Assembly: GCA_021817905.1 (NCBI GenBank)
Contig: JAKAFM010000001.1
Location: 3,985-67,984 of the forward strand
DNA: 64,000 bases
Reading direction: 5' to 3'
Source of the DNA: a bacterium
Lineage (GTDB): Bacteria > Patescibacteriota > Microgenomatia > UBA12405
A program made the position numbers and the translations under genes. The notes under the pieces were generated by a model. It saw only the letters and a list, made by a program, of their open reading frames with translations, was not told where the DNA came from and did no database searches. Shown here one piece after another: positions 34,795 to 49,150 of the stretch; position 1 is the stretch's first letter, and the number at the start of each line of letters is the position of its first letter.

Positions 34795-37437
34795 ATGCCA
34801 GACGCACCAAAAAAAACTCCCTATATTGCCACTAATAATACAGGCAGAATCATCGAAACCGACATTGTTCCCGAAATGGAAAAGTCCTACTTGGATTACG
34901 CCATGTCAGTTATCGTTGCTCGGGCCTTACCTGATGTCCGTGATGGTTTAAAGCCCGTCCACCGTCGCATCATCTATGCTATGGATAAAATGGGTCTAAC
35001 CCCGGGTGGTCGCAACTACAAGTCCGCAGCTGTCGTTGGAGAGGTCTTAAAATCGTTCCATCCCCACGGAGATATGGCTGTCTATATGTCACTCGTCCGT
35101 ATGGCCCAAGATTTTTCTCTGCGCTACCCCTTAGTTAAAGGGCAGGGGAACTTCGGCTCAATTGATGGTGATCCTCCCGCCGCTATGCGTTACACCGAAG
35201 TTCGCATGACTAGACTTACTATGGAAATGGTAGCCGACATCGACAAAGAAACGGTCGATATGGTTCCCAACTATGATGCCACCCTTGAAGAACCATCAGT
35301 TCTTCCGGCACGTATTCCCAACCTACTTCTCAATGGCGCCGATGGTATCGCTGTTGGCATGGCTACTCGCATCCCACCCCACAATCTAAAAGAAATATGC
35401 CTTGCTATCGACCATATTCTTCACCATACGACAATCGAAAAACACGCCAATACTGAATTTGAACTCAAACCCATAGTTACCTCTCAATCAACCACCCAAG
35501 ACATTGTCTTAAAAGATGTCTATGAGCTTGAACATCAAAAATATTTACTTGAAACCACGGCCACCGTCGAGCAACTGGTTACTTTTGTTCAAGGTCCTGA
35601 TTTTCCCACTGCCGGTGAAATTTTTGGCAAAACCGGTATCGTCGAAATGTATAATACCGGCCATGGTAAATTTGACATTCGTGGCAAAACCAGTATTGAA
35701 ACCACAAAACTAGGAAAGATGCGCATTATTATTACCGAACTCCCGTATCAGGTCAACAAAGCTGAGTTTGTTAAAAAAATTGCCGATCTTGCTCGTGATA
35801 AAAAAATCATCGGCATTTCTGATTTGCGCGACGAATCCGACCGTCACGGCATCCGCGTTGTTGTTGAAATCCGTAAAAATGGCAAACCAAAATCAATTCT
35901 AAACAAGCTGTTCAAATACACCCCCCTTCAAAGTTCATATTCCGCCAACATGTTGGCCTTAGTTGATGGTATCCCTCAGACTCTTAATCTTCGCCAAATG
36001 TTGTTGCTCTTCCTTCGCCATCGTGAACAAATTATCCGCCGACTAACAATCCACGATTTAAAAGGTGCCAAAATGCGTGCCCATATTTTGGAAGGTCTCA
36101 AGAAAGCTCTCGACGTGCTTGATGAGGTCATCAAAACCATTCGTGCCTCTGCCACCGCTGAAATTGCTAAAGAGAATTTAATGACCAAGTTTAAATTTAC
36201 AGATCTTCAGGCCGCTGCCATTCTCGAAATGCAACTCCGCCGCCTGGCCGCACTTGAACGCCAAAAACTGGAAGAAGAATACCATCAGCTTATGGACACC
36301 ATTAGTGGCTTTTTAGCCCTCTTGACCCAACCAGACAAAATGATTGCCCGCCTCATTGCCGAAAATAACGAAATAATAGAAAAATACGGTGATCCCAGAC
36401 TAACTAAGATTTACGTTCGCGGACTTGAAGAAATTAAAGAAGAAGATCTGGTTCCTAATGAAGAAGTTTTGGTGACCATTACTAAAAGTGGTTATATTAA
36501 GCGCGTCCCTCGCGATACCTACCGCACTCAAGCCCGGGGCGGAAAAGGAATCAGCGGCATGACCACTAAGACTGAAGACGAAGTTGAGACAATGCTTTCA
36601 GTCGAAACCCACGACGACCTGCTTTTCTTTACCAATCGAGGCCGGGTTTTTAAAACTAAGGTCTGGGATCTTCCCGAAAGCAGTCGTCAAGCCAAAGGTA
36701 TGGCCGTTATTAACCTTATCAATATCCTCCAAGGGGAAACCATTCAAACCGTTTTACCGCTCAACTCCCTTTCAAAAGCCAAATTTATCATCTTAGCCAC
36801 CAAAAAAGGCACTATTAAAAAAACATCACTGGATAAATTTAAAAACATACGACTAACTGGCCTGGCCGCTATCAAGCTTGACACCGGCGACGAATTATCA
36901 TGGGCAAAAGTCACTTCCGGCAAAGACCAGATCTTTTTGGTCACACATACTGGCAAATGTATCCGCTTTAGTGAAAACGATATCCGCCCCATGGGTCGTC
37001 ACACGCGGGGAGTCCGAGGAATAATGCTGAAAGATAATGACCTAGTTGTCAGTATGGACGTTATTCCCGAAGTCCTTGACAGTAGTTCTAAAAAAGATTT
37101 TCGCCATCTCTTAACAGTCACTGAAAATGGTATTGGCAAACGCTCCGACGTTTATCAATACCCTCTCCAAAAACGAGGGGGTGTTGGAGTTAAAGTCAGT
37201 AATCTCTCAGAAAAAACAGGTAAAATTGCCGTTGCCCAGGTTGTCAATCAAAATTCCGATCAAATTCTCCTGGTCTCCCGCAAAGCTGTCACCATAAAAT
37301 TACCACTCAAGAATATCCCCACCCTCAATCGCAACACGAGGGGAGTTATCCTCATGCGCCTGAAAACCGGTGAAGACAAAGTCACTAGTTTAACCGTATT
37401 AGAAGCCACAAACGAGCCAGAGACTAAGAATAACTAA
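34795..37437 (+). CDS. gyrA: DNA gyrase subunit A
   Basis: Active-site region AAMRYTE with the catalytic Tyr. A QRDR-like segment. C-terminal beta-pinwheel repeats. 880 aa. Confidence 0.95.
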
Positions 37438-37440
37438 AAC

Positions 37441-37650
37441 TATAGGACTATATATATGCAATATTATAGGACTATATATACTTATAGACACTTTTTAGCA
37501 TACAGAGTAGGGGACTGCTATCCTTGTTTCCGTTTTAATTTTAGGCGTATTATAAGGATAAATTAACTATATCTAAAGCTGATAGTAGGGGAGTTAAGGC
37601 TACTTTACCAAAAAACCTAAAAGTCGTCCATTATAGGACATATATATTAC
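37441..37650. repeat. Array of direct repeats (TATAGGACTATATATA x2, ATTATAGGACATATATA, TTATAAGGATAAATT, GTAGGGGA x2) on the 3' side of the recombinase gene
   Basis: Repeats are read directly from the sequence. The same TTATAGGA(C/T) and TTATAGGATAAATT words recur at 39150-39210 on the other side of the gene. Confidence 0.6.
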
Positions 37651-37658
37651 ATATCTTT

Positions 37659-38642
37659 CTATTTATTTCCACTATGAAATTTATCGTGTACTTCGCGTAA
37701 GTGAGCATCTGTAACGTGGGTATAGACCTGTGTCGTAATTATATTCTTATGACCAAGTAATTCCTGGATCGACCGCAGATCAGCACCAGCTAACAAGAGA
37801 TCCGTCGCCATTGAATGACGTAGGGTATGAGGTGTAGCATCAACCGGCAATCTTGCCTTACGCACATAGTGCTTCATTAAACGCTGAATTGAACGTACCG
37901 ATAGCCGGACGTCTTTATCAGTCATAGTTATAGAGACTTTGCCACCAAAACGAATAAACAATGGTTTAAACTTATCCGTCCGAGCCCGAAGGTAACGTCC
38001 AACATAAATAGCTGCCTGTTTTGAAATAAACACTACCCGTGATTTGCCACCCTTACCAACAACCCCAAACTCCCGTGTTTCCAAATTAATCCGATCACGG
38101 TCTAAACCTGCCAACTCCGATACCCGCAAACCCGTTGAAAACAATAACTCTAAAATAGCCTTATCTCGAAGTCCCTCTTTGGTCGATAGTAATGGTTGGT
38201 TAAGCAATAACTGCATTTGCTCTGAATTTAAAAATTTTAACGAATGGTCCTTATTTTTGGGAACGTCTAATTTTTCAGGAGCTAGAACCACATAATCCTT
38301 TTTAATCAACCATTTAAGAAACGAACGCAGAGCAATAATATAATAGCCTTGGGTAACAATCTTCAATTGACCAACTGTCCCATCAAGATGACTCAAATAA
38401 ACTCTAAATTTACGCACCCAATCACCATCAATATCAGCCACCACCGGCGGTCTCGTAAGATTACTTTTTAAATAATCATAAAATACGGTCAAGTAATGAC
38501 GATAGTTGCGGATTGTCAACCGTGAACAATTTCTCTCTATCTCCAGATGTTCCAAAAACTGTTCTATCAAAACTGACAAATTTACCTCCATAGATACCAG
38601 TATAACCCAAATCGTGCGTCTAATGGGCTCACACGAAGTCAA
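37659..38642 (-). CDS. Tyrosine site-specific recombinase (XerC/XerD/phage-integrase family)
   Basis: The C-terminal catalytic region HTLRHSMATDLLLAGADLRSIQELLGHKNIITTQVYTHV carries the R..H..R..Y signature. An N-terminal SAM-like core-binding domain is present. It stands alone between gyrA and a membrane-protein gene. Confidence 0.85.
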   Translation of the reverse strand: MTSCEPIRRTIWVILVSMEVNLSVLIEQFLEHLEIERNCSRLTIRNYRHYLTVFYDYLKSNLTRPPVVADIDGDWVRKFRVYLSHLDGTVGQLKIVTQGYYIIALRSFLKWLIKKDYVVLAPEKLDVPKNKDHSLKFLNSEQMQLLLNQPLLSTKEGLRDKAILELLFSTGLRVSELAGLDRDRINLETREFGVVGKGGKSRVVFISKQAAIYVGRYLRARTDKFKPLFIRFGGKVSITMTDKDVRLSVRSIQRLMKHYVRKARLPVDATPHTLRHSMATDLLLAGADLRSIQELLGHKNIITTQVYTHVTDAHLREVHDKFHSGNK

Positions 38643-38819
38643 TATAAATATTAGCCTTAGTTTACGTATTATTTATATATTTACTCTTTTAAGAGTGGTC
38701 CGGAGAAGTCAAATAACCAAATTTGAACCTAAAACCAAAAAATCAAGCAATTTTAAGCAACTTAGCCTCCGGGGAGGTATTTTACGATCTTTAGATCTTT
38801 TAAAAAAAATATAAAAATA

Positions 38820-39274
38820 TAAACAACATAATTATTTTAATTAAATTCAAAAAAATAACACTCCTCTGCCGTCAAAATGAATAGAAGTCGCAAAAGATAC
38901 ATTGTGCGACATATAAAAAGTGTCTTCCCCAATCAGAGGACAGTACTAAATAGTATTACCCAAGGAATAGGAACTATATCCACAAATAAACAAATAATGT
39001 ATTCGATACGTAAATAACAGCACCACCTCACCTATACAAGACCCTCTCTCCATCTAGCAGACCTATACTCCTCTGCCAAAGTTATCCACACAGACTATAT
39101 CATGCTATATCATCAAAGCTAAACTATATCAATATATATCATTCGTGAAAATTATAGGATAAATTGTGAAAATTATTTAATATTATAGGATTCAATATTA
39201 TAGGACACTTCCCTACTCTCCTATCAACTTACAAAAAATATTTCTATCTTTAGGCTAATTTAAAATTCAAATAA
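38820..39274. repeat. AT-rich non-coding region carrying ACTCCTCTGCC x2 and ATTATAGGA(T/C) x3 direct repeats
   Basis: About 630 bp with no credible ORF. The repeat words are shared with 37441-37650. Confidence 0.5.
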
Positions 39275-40054
39275 TTATCGCCAACTGGTGGTTACGACTA
39301 ACGATAAAATTACAGCCACCGTAATCCAAGCGAAACCTATCCACGTCTTTCGAAACAGCCGTTCCCGTAAATCAACCTGTAACAAGCTTCCCAAAATAAA
39401 CACAGCCCAAACCAAATAGATAGACGCGTTAAATATCCCTACCGGCCAAAATGATAAAACAAGCCCCAGTTCACCTACTACCAAAGCGGGAACAATCACA
39501 TGAACCGATACATCCTTTCGCTCCCGCAATTCAGTTTCAATTGATATTACCCAATAAAGATAAGCAAATAATAATAAACCAACCAAAAAGGCAATAAGTG
39601 CATTTATTCCAAAGAAAAATCGAAATGACCATAATGAATTAAAGATAAAAAATGAAGCCAGTAGAGTTAATAATAAATTTACCGTCCAAGCTGCCCGATA
39701 AAGCGGCACGGTTTTAAAAGCCAATGCCACCAAAAAAATATTCTCAACCAAATACACAATATAAAAGATAAATGCCAAAAGCAACGAAACAAAAATCCCC
39801 AGCTCCACCGAAAATGGTAATAACATCAAAAAAAGACTATAGCCTCCAAAAAAAAGTACCGGCAATACACTGATCATAATTCGGACCATCCACGACTCCT
39901 TCCATACTCCCTCAGCAAACCAGGACAGGATAATAATTCCCAACGACAATGCCCCCAAAGCCACGTAGCGCCATTCAAAAGGCAAGCTCAACAAAAATAA
40001 TAAACCTACCGCACTAGCCGCCGAAGCAATAAAAAACCTAAACCTTTTCGGCAT
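39275..40054 (-). CDS. Hypothetical polytopic membrane protein
   Basis: 259 aa with 7-8 hydrophobic helices. Confidence 0.5.
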   Translation of the reverse strand: MPKRFRFFIASAASAVGLLFLLSLPFEWRYVALGALSLGIIILSWFAEGVWKESWMVRIMISVLPVLFFGGYSLFLMLLPFSVELGIFVSLLLAFIFYIVYLVENIFLVALAFKTVPLYRAAWTVNLLLTLLASFFIFNSLWSFRFFFGINALIAFLVGLLLFAYLYWVISIETELRERKDVSVHVIVPALVVGELGLVLSFWPVGIFNASIYLVWAVFILGSLLQVDLRERLFRKTWIGFAWITVAVILSLVVTTSWR

Positions 40055-43712: not shown

Positions 43713-43730
43713 GTTAGGCTTATTGTACCA

Positions 43731-45041
43731 CTAACCCTTCTTCTCCACATCAAAAAAGCTGACCTGTTTACCGTTAAAATACAAATTCATCTCCCCTATT
43801 GGACCATTTCGATGCTTTGCAATACTCAAGGTCACATTCTCCCGAATTTCCTCATCTTCTCGACTCAAAAACATGACCACATCAGCATCCTGTTCAATAC
43901 TACCCGACTCCCGCAAATCAGAAAGCTTTGGCTTTCCTCCTCGAGCTTCCATCGCCCGCGATAATTGCGCTGCTGCCACAATGGGAATTCGTAACTCCCG
44001 AGCCAAATTTTTTAAACCTTGGGAAATTTCTGAAACCTCTTGGACACGATTATCCCGAGTCATGCCATGCATTAGCTGCAAATAGTCAACCAGAATAAAT
44101 TTAATTCCTCTCTCCGACTGTAAACGTCTTGCCTTCGTCCGTAACTCAGTTACTGTTAAGCCAGGACTATCATCAATATAAAGCGGTGCCTCAGCCAAAA
44201 TTCCCATCGCCTCAGAAAGCGACACAAAATCATCATCATTCAATTGTCCGGTTTTCAATTTCCAGGAATCCAACAATCCCTGACGTACCAACAGCCGATC
44301 GACCAATTCCTCCTTACTCATTTCCAATGAAAAAATACACACTGGCTGCTTTAGTTCAACTGCAATATACCTGGCAACATTCATACAAAACGCAGTTTTT
44401 CCAACTCCTGGTCGAGCCGCTAAAATCAACAAATTACTATCCTGCATTCCCGCCAACATTTTATCTAAAGTCCCAAATCCGGTTCCCAAACCACGAAGTC
44501 CACTCCCCCGTTTTTGTAATTCGTCAAGCCGGTCGAAACTTGCCGTCAAAACTTCACGCAATGATGTCGGCACATTCCGCAAATGTCGTTGAGTCAACGA
44601 GAATATTTCTTGCTCCGCCGCATCCAATAACTCCGACGAAGGCAAACCTTCATCAAATGCTTTTTCTGTAATTCGAGCCGCAGCTGAAATCAGCTCCCTC
44701 TTGGCCGACAACGATCGAATAATTTGTCCGTAACTTTCGACATTAGCACTGGTTGGCACATCATCTGCCAATCTGGCTAAAAACGCCTTGCCACCAATCT
44801 TCTTAAGGTACTTTAACTCTTTTAATTTTTCCGATACAGTAACAATATCAATCGGCGTTCGATTCTGATAGAGCAATTGCATTGCCTCATAAATCTTGCC
44901 GTGGATTTCGTTATAAAAATGCTCCGGCAACAAAAACTCCGACACATTTAAAATTGCCTCATTATCAATCAAAATTGAACCTAATACCGATTTTTCTGCC
45001 TCCTCCGAAGACGGCGGAATCTTTAGATCGCTCATATGCAA
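43731..45041 (-). CDS. dnaB: Replicative DNA helicase DnaB
   Basis: N-terminal domain (PPSSEEAEKSVLGSIL). Walker A GARPGVGKTAF. RecA-like C-terminal domain. 436 aa. Confidence 0.95.
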   Translation of the reverse strand: MHMSDLKIPPSSEEAEKSVLGSILIDNEAILNVSEFLLPEHFYNEIHGKIYEAMQLLYQNRTPIDIVTVSEKLKELKYLKKIGGKAFLARLADDVPTSANVESYGQIIRSLSAKRELISAAARITEKAFDEGLPSSELLDAAEQEIFSLTQRHLRNVPTSLREVLTASFDRLDELQKRGSGLRGLGTGFGTLDKMLAGMQDSNLLILAARPGVGKTAFCMNVARYIAVELKQPVCIFSLEMSKEELVDRLLVRQGLLDSWKLKTGQLNDDDFVSLSEAMGILAEAPLYIDDSPGLTVTELRTKARRLQSERGIKFILVDYLQLMHGMTRDNRVQEVSEISQGLKNLARELRIPIVAAAQLSRAMEARGGKPKLSDLRESGSIEQDADVVMFLSREDEEIRENVTLSIAKHRNGPIGEMNLYFNGKQVSFFDVEKKG

Positions 45042-45053
45042 TTGTAATACACT

Positions 45054-46484
45054 TTAGTAAAGTTGGCTTTGTTTATCGTTAAGCGATAATTTAAGTAAAT
45101 TTAAATCATTAGCTGTGGCCTGGCAATCACCATCTAAATCAGTTGCTAAATTGGCCCCACTATCTACTGTCCGATGTGTTAAAACATCTGATTTTACCAG
45201 TGAAAAATCAAGCCCATTAATGACCCCATCCCCATTAGCATCCCCGGCCATCAAAGGGTAATGACTAAAATCAAATACTGTTCCTGATGTCAGATCCAGA
45301 GTTCCGCCAGCTAAACCATAATAATCACTCTGACCATCTTTACCATATTTAGTCTGAATTTGCTTCGGACCTTTAACAAAAATTGCGGCATTAGTCATCG
45401 TTGATAAATTCACATTTGGCAATGTCACCCGATAAATAACTGCACTCGCCACCACCCCGATTCGTTCGGGGGTAACTTGGTCATACTGCGCCAGCGCATT
45501 CCCACTTTTTACAATCACACTAACCGGCGCAACCACCGGACATTGCCCATCAGCCACCAATCCTCCAAATGACATTAAAAATTGGACCAAACCAGTTGTT
45601 GAAGATGTCACCTGTGTTGGCGTTGGAATAGGAGTCATAACCATTGTTGGCTGAACTCCTGTTGCCGGTTGTTGAATCATTGTCGGCGAAGGTAATACAG
45701 TTCCACTACCTACTGTAAAACTGACATCCCGATTCTTACCCTCCCCACTTGAAAAAGTCGCTGTATACACTCCTGGAGTGGTCACCACCGGACAAGTCCA
45801 TTGCCACCAACAACTCATGCCATCACCCATAGTGTTACCGCTACACTTCGTCGCTGCAGGATTACTAACACAGAGAGACTTATTACTAATGCCTGCTGAA
45901 TTAAGATTAATGTTAGTAAGTCCATCATTCGAAGTAAACGTCAGCGTCACCTGGCCGCCCGGAGTTACTAATGCTGGAGTTACGTATCCATTAAGACCAT
46001 TAATTGTCGTTACGGTTGGCTGAATTGCTGTCCCTGTTGACGTTGGCAATGGTGCAGTTCCGCCAACCGTAATGGTAACGTTTCTAGTATTACCTTCACT
46101 ACTGCTAAACGTTCCAACATAAGTACCTGGCGTAAAGCTTGCTGTACAGGTCCATTGCCACCAACAACTCATGCCATCACCCATTGGATTGCCACTGCAC
46201 TTAGCACTATTAACCAAATCGAGTTGACAACTACTCAATTGTCCCGAAGCAAAACTGACATTAGTATATCCTTGTGCTGCCGTAAAAGTAACCTTTACTT
46301 GACCCCCGGGAGCTACTGGCTGTGGATTAACATAAGCGTTAAGACCATTAATCGTATCTAAAGTCGAAGTACTTGTTGCCCGACCTCGATTATCAAGATT
46401 AGTTTTTAATTCCAAAACAATCAACGGTACTGTAGCCACTAAAAGCAAACTCCATATCACCCAAAATGAAATATGTTTATTCAT
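45054..46484 (-). CDS. Secreted protein with two Cys-rich ~115-aa repeats and C-terminal dockerin-like Ca-binding repeats
   Basis: Signal peptide. Duplicated module INGLN.YV.P..V.PGGQV...FT...G.TN.......CSGN.MGDGMSCWWQWTC...TPG.Y...FSS.EG..R.V..TVG. C-terminal GDANGDGVINGLDFSLVKSDV...DLDGDCQATANDLNLL is like a dockerin type I pair. Confidence 0.6.
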   Translation of the reverse strand: MNKHISFWVIWSLLLVATVPLIVLELKTNLDNRGRATSTSTLDTINGLNAYVNPQPVAPGGQVKVTFTAAQGYTNVSFASGQLSSCQLDLVNSAKCSGNPMGDGMSCWWQWTCTASFTPGTYVGTFSSSEGNTRNVTITVGGTAPLPTSTGTAIQPTVTTINGLNGYVTPALVTPGGQVTLTFTSNDGLTNINLNSAGISNKSLCVSNPAATKCSGNTMGDGMSCWWQWTCPVVTTPGVYTATFSSGEGKNRDVSFTVGSGTVLPSPTMIQQPATGVQPTMVMTPIPTPTQVTSSTTGLVQFLMSFGGLVADGQCPVVAPVSVIVKSGNALAQYDQVTPERIGVVASAVIYRVTLPNVNLSTMTNAAIFVKGPKQIQTKYGKDGQSDYYGLAGGTLDLTSGTVFDFSHYPLMAGDANGDGVINGLDFSLVKSDVLTHRTVDSGANLATDLDGDCQATANDLNLLKLSLNDKQSQLY

Positions 46485-47079
46485 GTCTATTTAATACTAC
46501 CACCTCAAGACCTTCTGGCAACTCATCTCGACTTATCTTAAGACTAGCCACCGGCAAAAGATCTTCTCGGTCAACCACATCCAAAAAAGTCTTCAATTCA
46601 TCCTCGCTTTCATAACCAACCGGAATAACATAATTTACTCCCCACTTCTTCGCCCATGATAAATATAATTTCAACTTTTCCAAAGATTTTTTTGCACACG
46701 GCACAAAAAGAACATCCAATGAATCAATTCGCTCAATTTTCTTTTCGGTCAAATCTTCAATAGGCTCTCCCATTACCCCAACCGACACCCCATCAATTGT
46801 TATCGCATAAACAGTTGACCCCTGTCCCGCCGAGATTCCCGTTAACTCTACCCCTCCAACTTCATATTCTCCCGGACCGGCAATAACTACTTGATCAGGA
46901 CTTTTCTTCACAAAGTTCCACATATTTTTAGTTGATACCACTACTCGTCCCTCAAAACCATTCTTCTCTTCAGGATCAATTACTACTTGTTCTTTTTTTC
47001 CCTTAAGTACTAGACAATAATCATGTAGGTACTGGATTTCCATAAAAATTACTATATCATGATATGATAATATCTGCAC
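46477..47079 (-). CDS. Hypothetical protein (possibly a degenerate MBL-fold hydrolase-like protein)
   Basis: 200 aa with beta-lactamase-fold-like secondary-structure periodicity but no clear HxHxDH. Confidence 0.35.
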   Translation of the reverse strand: MQILSYHDIVIFMEIQYLHDYCLVLKGKKEQVVIDPEEKNGFEGRVVVSTKNMWNFVKKSPDQVVIAGPGEYEVGGVELTGISAGQGSTVYAITIDGVSVGVMGEPIEDLTEKKIERIDSLDVLFVPCAKKSLEKLKLYLSWAKKWGVNYVIPVGYESEDELKTFLDVVDREDLLPVASLKISRDELPEGLEVVVLNRHE

Positions 47080-49070: not shown

Positions 49071-49150
49071 CGAATCTGCAGATGAGTCCGTCGACTGACG
49101 GATTAGAGGCCTAATTGATATACTCCACTAAAATAACGTTTCTTTAACAT

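Follow-up and report, generated by a model that had tools for sequence, protein, structure and literature searches.

The closest described system is XerS-difSL of streptococci and lactococci, where a xer gene is linked to its recombination site across the clade (Le Bourgeois et al. 2007; PMC1914069). The locus considered here comes from a bacterium of the Microgenomatia and is part of a 64,000-nucleotide (nt) stretch of contig JAKAFM010000001.1 (assembly GCA_021817905.1, positions 3,985 to 67,984), referred to as the window. It consists of a xer gene, a dif-type palindromic core upstream of the gene, and repeated motifs on both sides. The xer gene and the candidate dif probably constitute a vertically inherited, linked module that has conserved accessory DNA motifs. 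The two central elements, in window coordinates, are:

37659-38591, minus strand: xer, a Xer-type tyrosine recombinase gene (basis: Pfam domains, NCBIfam scores, structure relative, catalytic residues)
38885-38912, minus strand: dif-type core, ATGTCGCACAA / TGTATC / TTTTGCGACTT (basis: inverted arms, conservation upstream of xer)

The likeness to XerS-difSL is in the arrangement. The recombinase gene is next to its own site, and the linkage is kept while neighbour genes vary (PMC1914069). Both sites consist of two imperfect inverted repeats with a centre of 6-8 bp. XerS, however, is a longer and different protein, and the window protein reaches 122 bits with the XerS model, where the cut-off is 267 bits. 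In addition, difSL is 31 bp long and is about 50 bp from xerS at a terminus defined by skew (PMC1914069), whereas the core of the window module is 24-28 bp long, is found 300 nt to approximately 3.7 kb upstream of xer across 70 loci, lies within a conserved non-coding stretch of 0.6-1 kb and has no skew switch beside it.

With the canonical XerC/XerD-dif systems of E. coli and B. subtilis, as well as with archaeal XerA-dif, the window module has in common the recombinase family, its architecture, the catalytic residues and the 11-6-11 geometry of the site. A difference is that the core is away from the GC-skew shift point, where predicted dif sites are normally found (PMC3025954). The right arm also differs, as it is a near-copy of the left arm (9/11 symmetric) and not the XerD arm TTATGTTAAAT. 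Symmetric arms would fit one recombinase acting on both. The left arm plus centre, CGCACAATGTAT, is close to E. coli dif (CGCATAATGTAT); over its full length the core matches the textbook E. coli dif at 18 of 28 positions, chiefly in the XerC arm and centre.

Accessory recombinase-binding repeats are found beside a simple core in integron attI1 (DR1/DR2), in FRT (the third FLP element) and in the cer/psi accessory sequences. The likeness to the window is that these are half-site-like repeats on one side of the core, in one orientation and within a few hundred bp. The window boxes, however, are also present 1.2-1.45 kb off, past xer, and are mixed with three motif families that include a DnaA box.

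Integrative mobile elements exploiting Xer (IMEX) include the inoviruses CTX-phi and VGJ-phi and Bacteroidetes microvirus proviruses (PMC3091885). The core described here is similarly carried by viral contigs without an integrase, including one small contig with a Zot-like gene. The difference is that IMEX are the exploiting elements, whereas the window carries a chromosomal site with nothing integrated. With the module, a large branch of the Candidate Phyla Radiation (CPR) has a concrete candidate for a Xer/dif system. A literature search on the topic found no Xer/dif description for this CPR branch, and a search with the arm sequences gave unrelated primer matches only.

The recombinase gene and the candidate dif core

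The xer open reading frame (ORF) encodes 310 amino acids. Its ATG at 38591 agrees with the N-termini of homologues, and an upstream TTG at 38642 is an unlikely start. The protein carries Phage_int_SAM_1 (PF02899, 2.4e-12) followed by Phage_integrase (PF00589, 6.7e-39) in Pfam, and thus has the Xer-family architecture of an N-terminal SAM-like core-binding domain and a C-terminal catalytic domain in about 300 amino acids. The catalytic R-K-H-R-H-Y set (R156, K180, H255, R258, H281 and Y290) is invariant in a comparison of 18 homologues. The best solved relative is E. coli XerD (1a0p, 132 bits), and full-length alignments were obtained with 1a0p and with Pyrococcus XerA (4a8e). The initial annotation, which was made from the sequence and described the gene as XerC/XerD-like, was therefore right in this respect. 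Scores are below the equivalog cut-offs for XerC (TIGR02224, 236 bits vs 335.15) and XerD (TIGR02225, 228.3 bits vs 329.6) and below the cut-off of the XerA model (214.3 vs 220). The protein is Xer-like but cannot be given the name of one of these orthologues.

A protein search scored 8000 homologues. The best 120 are 66-99% identical and approximately 310 amino acids long and, where a name is present, are named as Woesebacteria, Shapirobacteria, Microgenomates or Patescibacteria. Across Microgenomates the protein is about 55-83% identical. There is no second xer gene within the 64-kb window. Directly upstream of the xer start codon is an imperfect hairpin, TCGTGTG-N11-CGCACGA (38592-38640), which is part-conserved in three relatives (L008-L010). 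It may be a translational or transcriptional control element.

What is the evidence for a dif site? About 300 bp upstream of xer, two 11-bp inverted arms surround the 6-bp centre TGTATC, and this is the geometry of dif sites (inverted arms of about 11 bp, a centre of 6-8 bp). The initial annotation had overlooked this core, the most informative feature of the locus. The block ATGTCGCACAATGTATCTTTTGCGACT is invariant in an alignment of the upstream spacers (630-810 nt) of four genomes. The 24-nt heart of the core (38887-38910) has a single copy in the 64-kb window, where 0.03 are expected, and related loci of approximately 9 kb likewise have one core each. In 70 of 83 non-redundant loci, from 70 species-level genomes, xer has the core upstream of it and in one and the same orientation. 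Six of the 13 loci without a core have too little upstream DNA to judge. The physical linkage of xer and core that characterizes a XerS-difSL-type module is thus found in 70 of the 77 loci that have at least about 1.6 kb of upstream DNA.

Information content is about 2 bits per position in the arms and about 1 bit in the central four nt; there are 12 different centres among the 70 genomes. Near-invariant arms around a variable centre are what the crossover sites of tyrosine recombinases typically show. The left arm of the core is also the left arm of the predicted dif of Methylacidiphilum, which starts ACTTCGCACAAT; this sequence and the predicted Acholeplasma dif discussed below are from the supplement of PMC3025954. 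As the core is also carried by viral contigs that mostly lack an integrase (see below), the palindrome is concluded, from these sequence comparisons, to be a genuine tyrosine-recombinase target. It is most probably the site on which the resident Xer acts. From established Xer biochemistry, Xer protomers would occupy both of the inverted 11-bp arms. Two cores would then come together, whether both are on a chromosome dimer or one is on the chromosome and the other on an incoming element, and strand exchange would run across TGTATC.

Two Gottesmanbacteria-like loci (L070 and L078, in both at about position 1925) have a perfect palindrome, GTACAC-AAT-GTGTAC, between the motif block and the core. 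It has CACAATG in common with the left arm of the core and is without the right arm.

The gene is flanked by gyrA (34795-37437, plus strand) and a membrane-protein gene (39275-40054, minus strand), and there are no cargo genes, as had been noted from the start. No tRNA or tmRNA attachment site is found near the locus. The gene order, consisting of YebC, the membrane protein, a long spacer, xer and a gyrA that converges on xer, is kept in relatives whose Xer is 83%, 77% and 73% identical. A scan of one genome per species gave 80 loci that encode Xer relatives (53-69% identical), and no empty site lacking xer was found among relatives. The identical protein is present on 13 contigs. Seven of these loci, all of the window strain, were examined, including that of GCA_027347555.1; they have the window sequence over the covered part of the 2.1-kb locus, in a single orientation, and none is a structural variant (inversion or excision). 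With the same gene order in its closest relatives and about 55-83% identity across Microgenomates, xer is a core gene without cargo: it is the organism's own chromosomal gene and has been inherited vertically.

As explanations of the locus, the initial annotation had offered a minimal integrative element, the remnant of an att site, or a regulatory segment that the recombinase would invert or excise. A tyrosine recombinase located between direct repeats does call such elements to mind, and a 14-nt imperfect inverted repeat, AGAGTAGGGGACTG / CACTTCCCTACTCT (pair I12), brackets xer. This pair, however, is one of 23 comparable pairs at chance level. The conserved gene order, the lack of an empty site, the lack of cargo, the single core in 64 kb and the seven identical loci of one orientation all speak against a mobile unit, as does the orientation of core and boxes relative to xer, which is fixed in 70 genomes. 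Mobility in any of these forms is scarcely credible. An integrative element was considered on the basis of cargo, a duplicated core and variable presence, and was rejected. An invertible switch, which needs inverted flanking cores and both orientations, was rejected as well, with one core and one orientation seen. The likelier reading of the locus is a xer-dif module in the CPR whose accessory motifs are conserved and oriented and whose place on the chromosome is atypical, and not an integrative element, att remnant or invertible switch.

Repeat boxes and the wider motif block

The repeats that first drew attention to the locus are TATAGGACTATATATA at 37441 and 37465, ATTATAGGACATATATA at 37630, ATTATAGGA(T/C) at 39151, 39182 and 39197, and ACTCCTCTGCC at 38860 and 39067. 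They are present where described and they are not random. TATAGGA has seven copies in 64 kb (8.0 expected), of which six are within 37441-39205, all on the plus strand. The binomial probability of at least six of seven in this span is 3.8e-9, or about 1e-10 if the shared strand is counted. On the coding strand of xer, the TATAGGAC words of the initial annotation read, as their reverse complement, (T)CCTATAAT, here called the box. CCTATAAT has nine copies in the window (3.1 expected), and five of these are at the locus. The boxes and the other motifs around xer are:

39197-39204, minus strand: box 1, GTCCTATAAT (ATTATAGGAC in the initial annotation); invariant block in the 12-genome alignment A5
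39182-39189, minus strand: box 2, ATCCTATAAT, begins 15 nt past box 1; 12-genome alignment
39151-39158, minus strand: box 3, ATCCTATAAT, between two TTTTCAC words; 12-genome alignment
37630-37637, minus strand: box A, GTCCTATAAT, directly past the xer stop codon; CCTATA(A/G)T at this position in 10 relatives
37463-37470, minus strand: box B, GTCCTATAAT, 167 nt past box A; spacing in relatives
37439-37446, minus strand: box C, GTCCTATAGT (CCTATAGT at 37439), 2 nt from the gyrA stop codon; window and L008
39145-39151 and 39166-39172, minus strand: two TTTTCAC(G/A) words around box 3; direct reading and 12-genome alignment
39094-39142, minus strand: four TGATATA(G/T) words in two pairs, extended -10-like (TGnTATAGT); repeat family D5
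39082-39090, plus strand: perfect DnaA box TTATCCACA (TGTGGATAA on the xer strand); motif scan
38976-38984: DnaA box with one mismatch; motif scan
38860-38870, minus strand: purine-rich GGCAGAGGAGT (ACTCCTCTGCC in the initial annotation), about 16 nt downstream of the core; repeat family D13
38800-38859, no strand: tract of about 80% A+T in the interval between core and xer; GC 0.20-0.22
37495-37522, no strand: palindrome (T)TAGCA-N16-TGCTA(T) in the xer-gyrA spacer; TTAGCA-N15-TGCTAA in relatives

Boxes 1-3 are located 240-320 nt upstream of the core. They are invariant blocks in most of 12 genomes whose Xer proteins are 63-83% identical, within a spacer that is 62% identical overall. The tandem pair with its spacing of 14-15 nt is also present in distant lineages (L031, L037, L056, L069, L070 and L078). 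On the other side of xer, boxes A and B are 167-168 nt apart in L001, L008-L009, L011-L014 and L017-L018; in L010 and L021 the box at this distance from box A is absent or displaced. All boxes of the window run in the direction of the core's left arm. The initial annotation had reasoned that relatives with the same recombinase at the same locus, and no conservation of the repeats, would point to a plain chromosomal Xer with an AT-rich promoter. This case does not apply, as relatives with a diverged spacer keep the repeats in the same sequence, number, order and spacing. A functional reading of the repeats is supported by this conservation, but it is none of the three explanations that were originally proposed.

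The boxes are part of a wider block. In 62 loci, the most widely shared 8-mers besides the core are TGATATAG (53 loci), TTTTCACG (47), GTGGATAA, which is within the DnaA box TGTGGATAA (41), and CCTATAAT (37). Their median positions are 260-320 nt upstream of the core, with TTTTCACG at -261. The four motif types are 50-90 times denser between -700 and -100 than elsewhere in the loci (63 loci). They are also oriented: same-strand and opposite-strand counts are 63 and 26 for CCTATAAT, 71 and 7 for TGATATAG, and 63 and 8 for TTTTCACG, and all 33 copies of TGTGGATAA are on the xer strand. The block is a rare case in which non-coding DNA words have been preserved over a class-level radiation. Past the core, a GGGAGAAGTGG-like purine motif is found at 15-25 nt in most of 70 loci; a second GGCAGAGGAGT-type copy in the window (39067-39077) comes after the DnaA box. 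Across loci, the interval +60 to +120 from the core is enriched in AT-rich 8-mers. In the window's 80% AT tract, two assemblies that are independent of each other terminate (L004, with a contig of 60 kb, and L007), at about 38786-38818. This could come from low coverage of AT-rich DNA or from a true discontinuity in coverage or structure.

What do the boxes bind? They are most likely accessory protein-binding sites, and could be either isolated Xer half-sites or sites of another DNA-binding protein. The box is the left arm of the predicted Acholeplasma dif, GCCTATAATGT (this dif reads AGTGCCTATAATGTAT...), and it fits the XerC-arm pattern of published dif sites. Arm-type sites in the strict sense, as initially suggested, are not what the protein would bind, as its 310 amino acids make up a core-binding and a catalytic domain only. 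With no lambda-type arm-binding domain, any binding of the boxes by Xer would be as isolated half-sites of the core type. The motif block as a whole probably controls xer expression, the assembly of a recombination complex, or both. Box A (TATATGTCCTATAATG) was also compared with the left arm of the core (TATATGTCGCACAATG); the match at 13 of 16 positions was given little weight, such matches being common in AT-rich DNA.

Several points weigh against a xer-dif module with accessory sites. Between the core arms (GTCGCACAA) and the box (GTCCTATAA), three of nine positions differ. The box includes a perfect TATAAT. Three other motif types, the DnaA box among them, are unexplained by Xer. The core is without a GC-skew switch, and the terminus position expected of a dif site is therefore not observed.

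The TATAAT raises the question of promoters. The CCTATAAT boxes might be tandem -10 promoter elements, of which the upstream trio drives a long xer leader that runs through the core, such that Xer could act as its own repressor through a block of transcription. From the downstream boxes, short spacer RNAs or RNAs antisense to gyrA would be made. Each box does hold its TATAAT on the xer coding strand, the adjacent TGATATAGT words match the extended -10 style found before tRNA genes, and a T-run follows the post-core purine motif in most close relatives. The tRNA-type elements, however, have the form TGnTAnAnT, which TGATATAGT fits and CCTATAAT does not, and the boxes have neither a conserved -35 nor a TG extension. 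In a scan for promoters and terminators, shuffled controls were not exceeded, and no hit falls on a box. Boxes 14-15 nt apart are too close for independent promoters. Boxes A-C, past the xer stop codon, face the 3' end of the converging gyrA, where there is no gene to transcribe. The conserved CC prefix is not a promoter feature, and of the four CCTATAAT copies away from the locus three are inside long ORFs and none is upstream of a same-strand gene. Promoter function of the boxes is thus unlikely, though it carries some weight.

Extended -10-style elements are present elsewhere in the window, before tRNA-Leu (TGGTACAAT, 43713-43735) and tRNA-His (TGATATACT, 49110-49130), and TGATATAGT is found at the gene at 46477-47079 (47051-47059). 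This suggests that the organism uses extended -10 promoters without a clear -35 element.

Could the 630-nt spacer represent a structured non-coding RNA, with the palindrome as an RNA hairpin? The conserved non-coding spacer upstream of xer is unusually long (0.6-1 kb) in every lineage, and in some genomes an upstream pyrimidine stretch could form pairs with the purine motif that comes after the core. By appearance, no small ORF of the spacer is convincing as a gene. However, there is no Rfam match (gathering threshold, E<=10) in the window or in 12 related loci. RNAalifold gave 0, -8.75 and -3.26 kcal/mol for the core region of 45 genomes, the upstream block of 12 genomes and the xer-gyrA spacer of 10 genomes, respectively, with almost no compensatory pairs. 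Pairing between a genome's own flanks (-20.3 kcal/mol) is close to that between flanks of different genomes (-19.1 kcal/mol), and the median rank is 28 of 70. In RNA, the common variant GTCGCA...TACGAC would place C opposite A as a mismatch, and unrelated viral contexts have the palindrome as well. Motif order, in addition, is shuffled between lineages, which favours independent protein-binding words over one folded RNA. A structured RNA is very improbable.

The xer-gyrA spacer (37438-37658) has a layout of its own in about 10 genomes (L008-L018): box A, about 75 nt of variable sequence, the small palindrome CCCTA-N3-TAGGG, TAAAC, the palindrome TTAGCA-N15-TGCTAA and box B. The second palindrome is conserved in sequence, yet variation breaks its pairs without compensation, which is unlike an RNA helix.

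Strand skew and the chromosomal setting

The window has a marked strand disparity. The plus strand has 25.5% C and 15.8% G, and no 2-kb stretch has positive skew. GC3 skew on the plus strand is -0.26 to -0.75 for every gene, whichever its direction. In all of 54 related loci, the sign of GC3 skew is the same before and after the core and does not flip. A similar disparity has been described in Ca. Chazhemtobacterium Ch65 of the Microgenomates order UBA1400, with 29.8% C and 15.0% G (Kadnikov et al. 2020; PMC7143001), and there, too, it is independent of gene direction. The closed genomes of Ch65, Collierbacteria and Beckwithbacteria have a skew of one sign along the entire chromosome (PMC7143001). 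The authors of the Ch65 study proposed a nearby origin and terminus or unidirectional replication and located neither; the text of their paper contains neither 'dnaA' nor 'Xer', and no dif was located (PMC7143001).

As related closed genomes are without any skew switch (PMC7143001), the skew criterion for dif may not apply here. A uniform skew around a candidate dif leaves two readings: either dimer resolution is independent of terminus position, or the terminus is next to the origin and is marked by the module.

The second of these can be taken further. The locus might be the junction where replication of the chromosome in one direction both ends and begins, with dif marking the terminus, and the DnaA box, the iteron-like repeats (CCTATAAT, TGATATAG and TTTTCACG) and the 80% AT tract forming a plasmid-like theta origin or a one-way fork barrier. 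If true, this would be the first physical location of the proposed but unmapped arrangement of origin next to terminus in genomes with one-signed skew. The absence of a sign change in the window resembles the closed genomes named above (PMC7143001), and the core is never at a skew flip in the 54 loci. A strictly oriented DnaA box, three direct-repeat families and the AT tract accompany the core across the class, and genes converge just past xer in most loci. However, the window has one perfect and one single-mismatch DnaA box and no cluster above chance. No dnaA (DnaA signature) is found in the window, nor, up to a distance of about 4 kb, in 90 loci, and the locus is not placed as expected of oriC, which adjoins dnaA/dnaN and has a skew minimum. 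The genes just downstream, which are gyrA, gyrB and those of a further 12 kb or so, would run head-on against the fork, and lineages with weak, ordinary skew values carry the same module. A replication junction is a rather improbable explanation.

In most loci (L001-L090), genes upstream of xer are co-directional with it and the immediate downstream genes are opposed. The convergence is seen even where gyrA/gyrB are not present downstream, and the sign of the GC3 skew is unchanged at that point.

The same core in viral contigs and small elements

A dif-like site without an integrase of its own is a hallmark of elements that exploit a host Xer (PMC3091885). IMG/VR was scanned for GTCGYACAA-N(5-7)-TTTTRCGAC, and at least 120 contigs carry a match, of which 119 loci were examined. 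All listed viral-contig matches have the 6-bp spacing. The viral cores are found in at least 105 distinct contexts with a GC content of 30% to 61%, and 90 of 110 are intergenic. A Xer-family hidden Markov model (HMM), which detected an integrase of 26% identity at 76 bits, found a tyrosine recombinase in two of the 119 viral loci, over the DNA covered, and none in the small viral contigs that were examined whole. One of these small contigs, of 4.7 kb, encodes a Zot-like inovirus protein. Cultured phages and plasmids gave no useful match to the commonest viral core variant.

These contigs may, from their sequences, represent Xer-exploiting viruses of uncultured hosts. The presence of the core in more than 100 integrase-less viral contigs suggests a sizeable and unrecognised set of such viruses, and a matching 6-bp centre would offer a way to link them to their hosts. 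Several viral groups (L094-L213) flank the core with repeats of their own, e.g. ACCCCTGTTA / TAACAGGGGT, or with DnaA boxes (L170).

A match to the core arms in L093 is inside a coding region and was set aside as chance. A different case is a plasmid- or phage-like element (L091:348-1363 and L092:1-720) that encodes a tyrosine recombinase of its own, with 26% identity to the window Xer. Past the integrase stop codon, after about 130 nt, it carries TGTCGCACAA-TAGTAAC-TTTTGCGACA, which has the same arms around a 7-bp centre. Downstream of these arms, L092 has a small ORF followed by an ORF that, by eye, resembles a replication protein.

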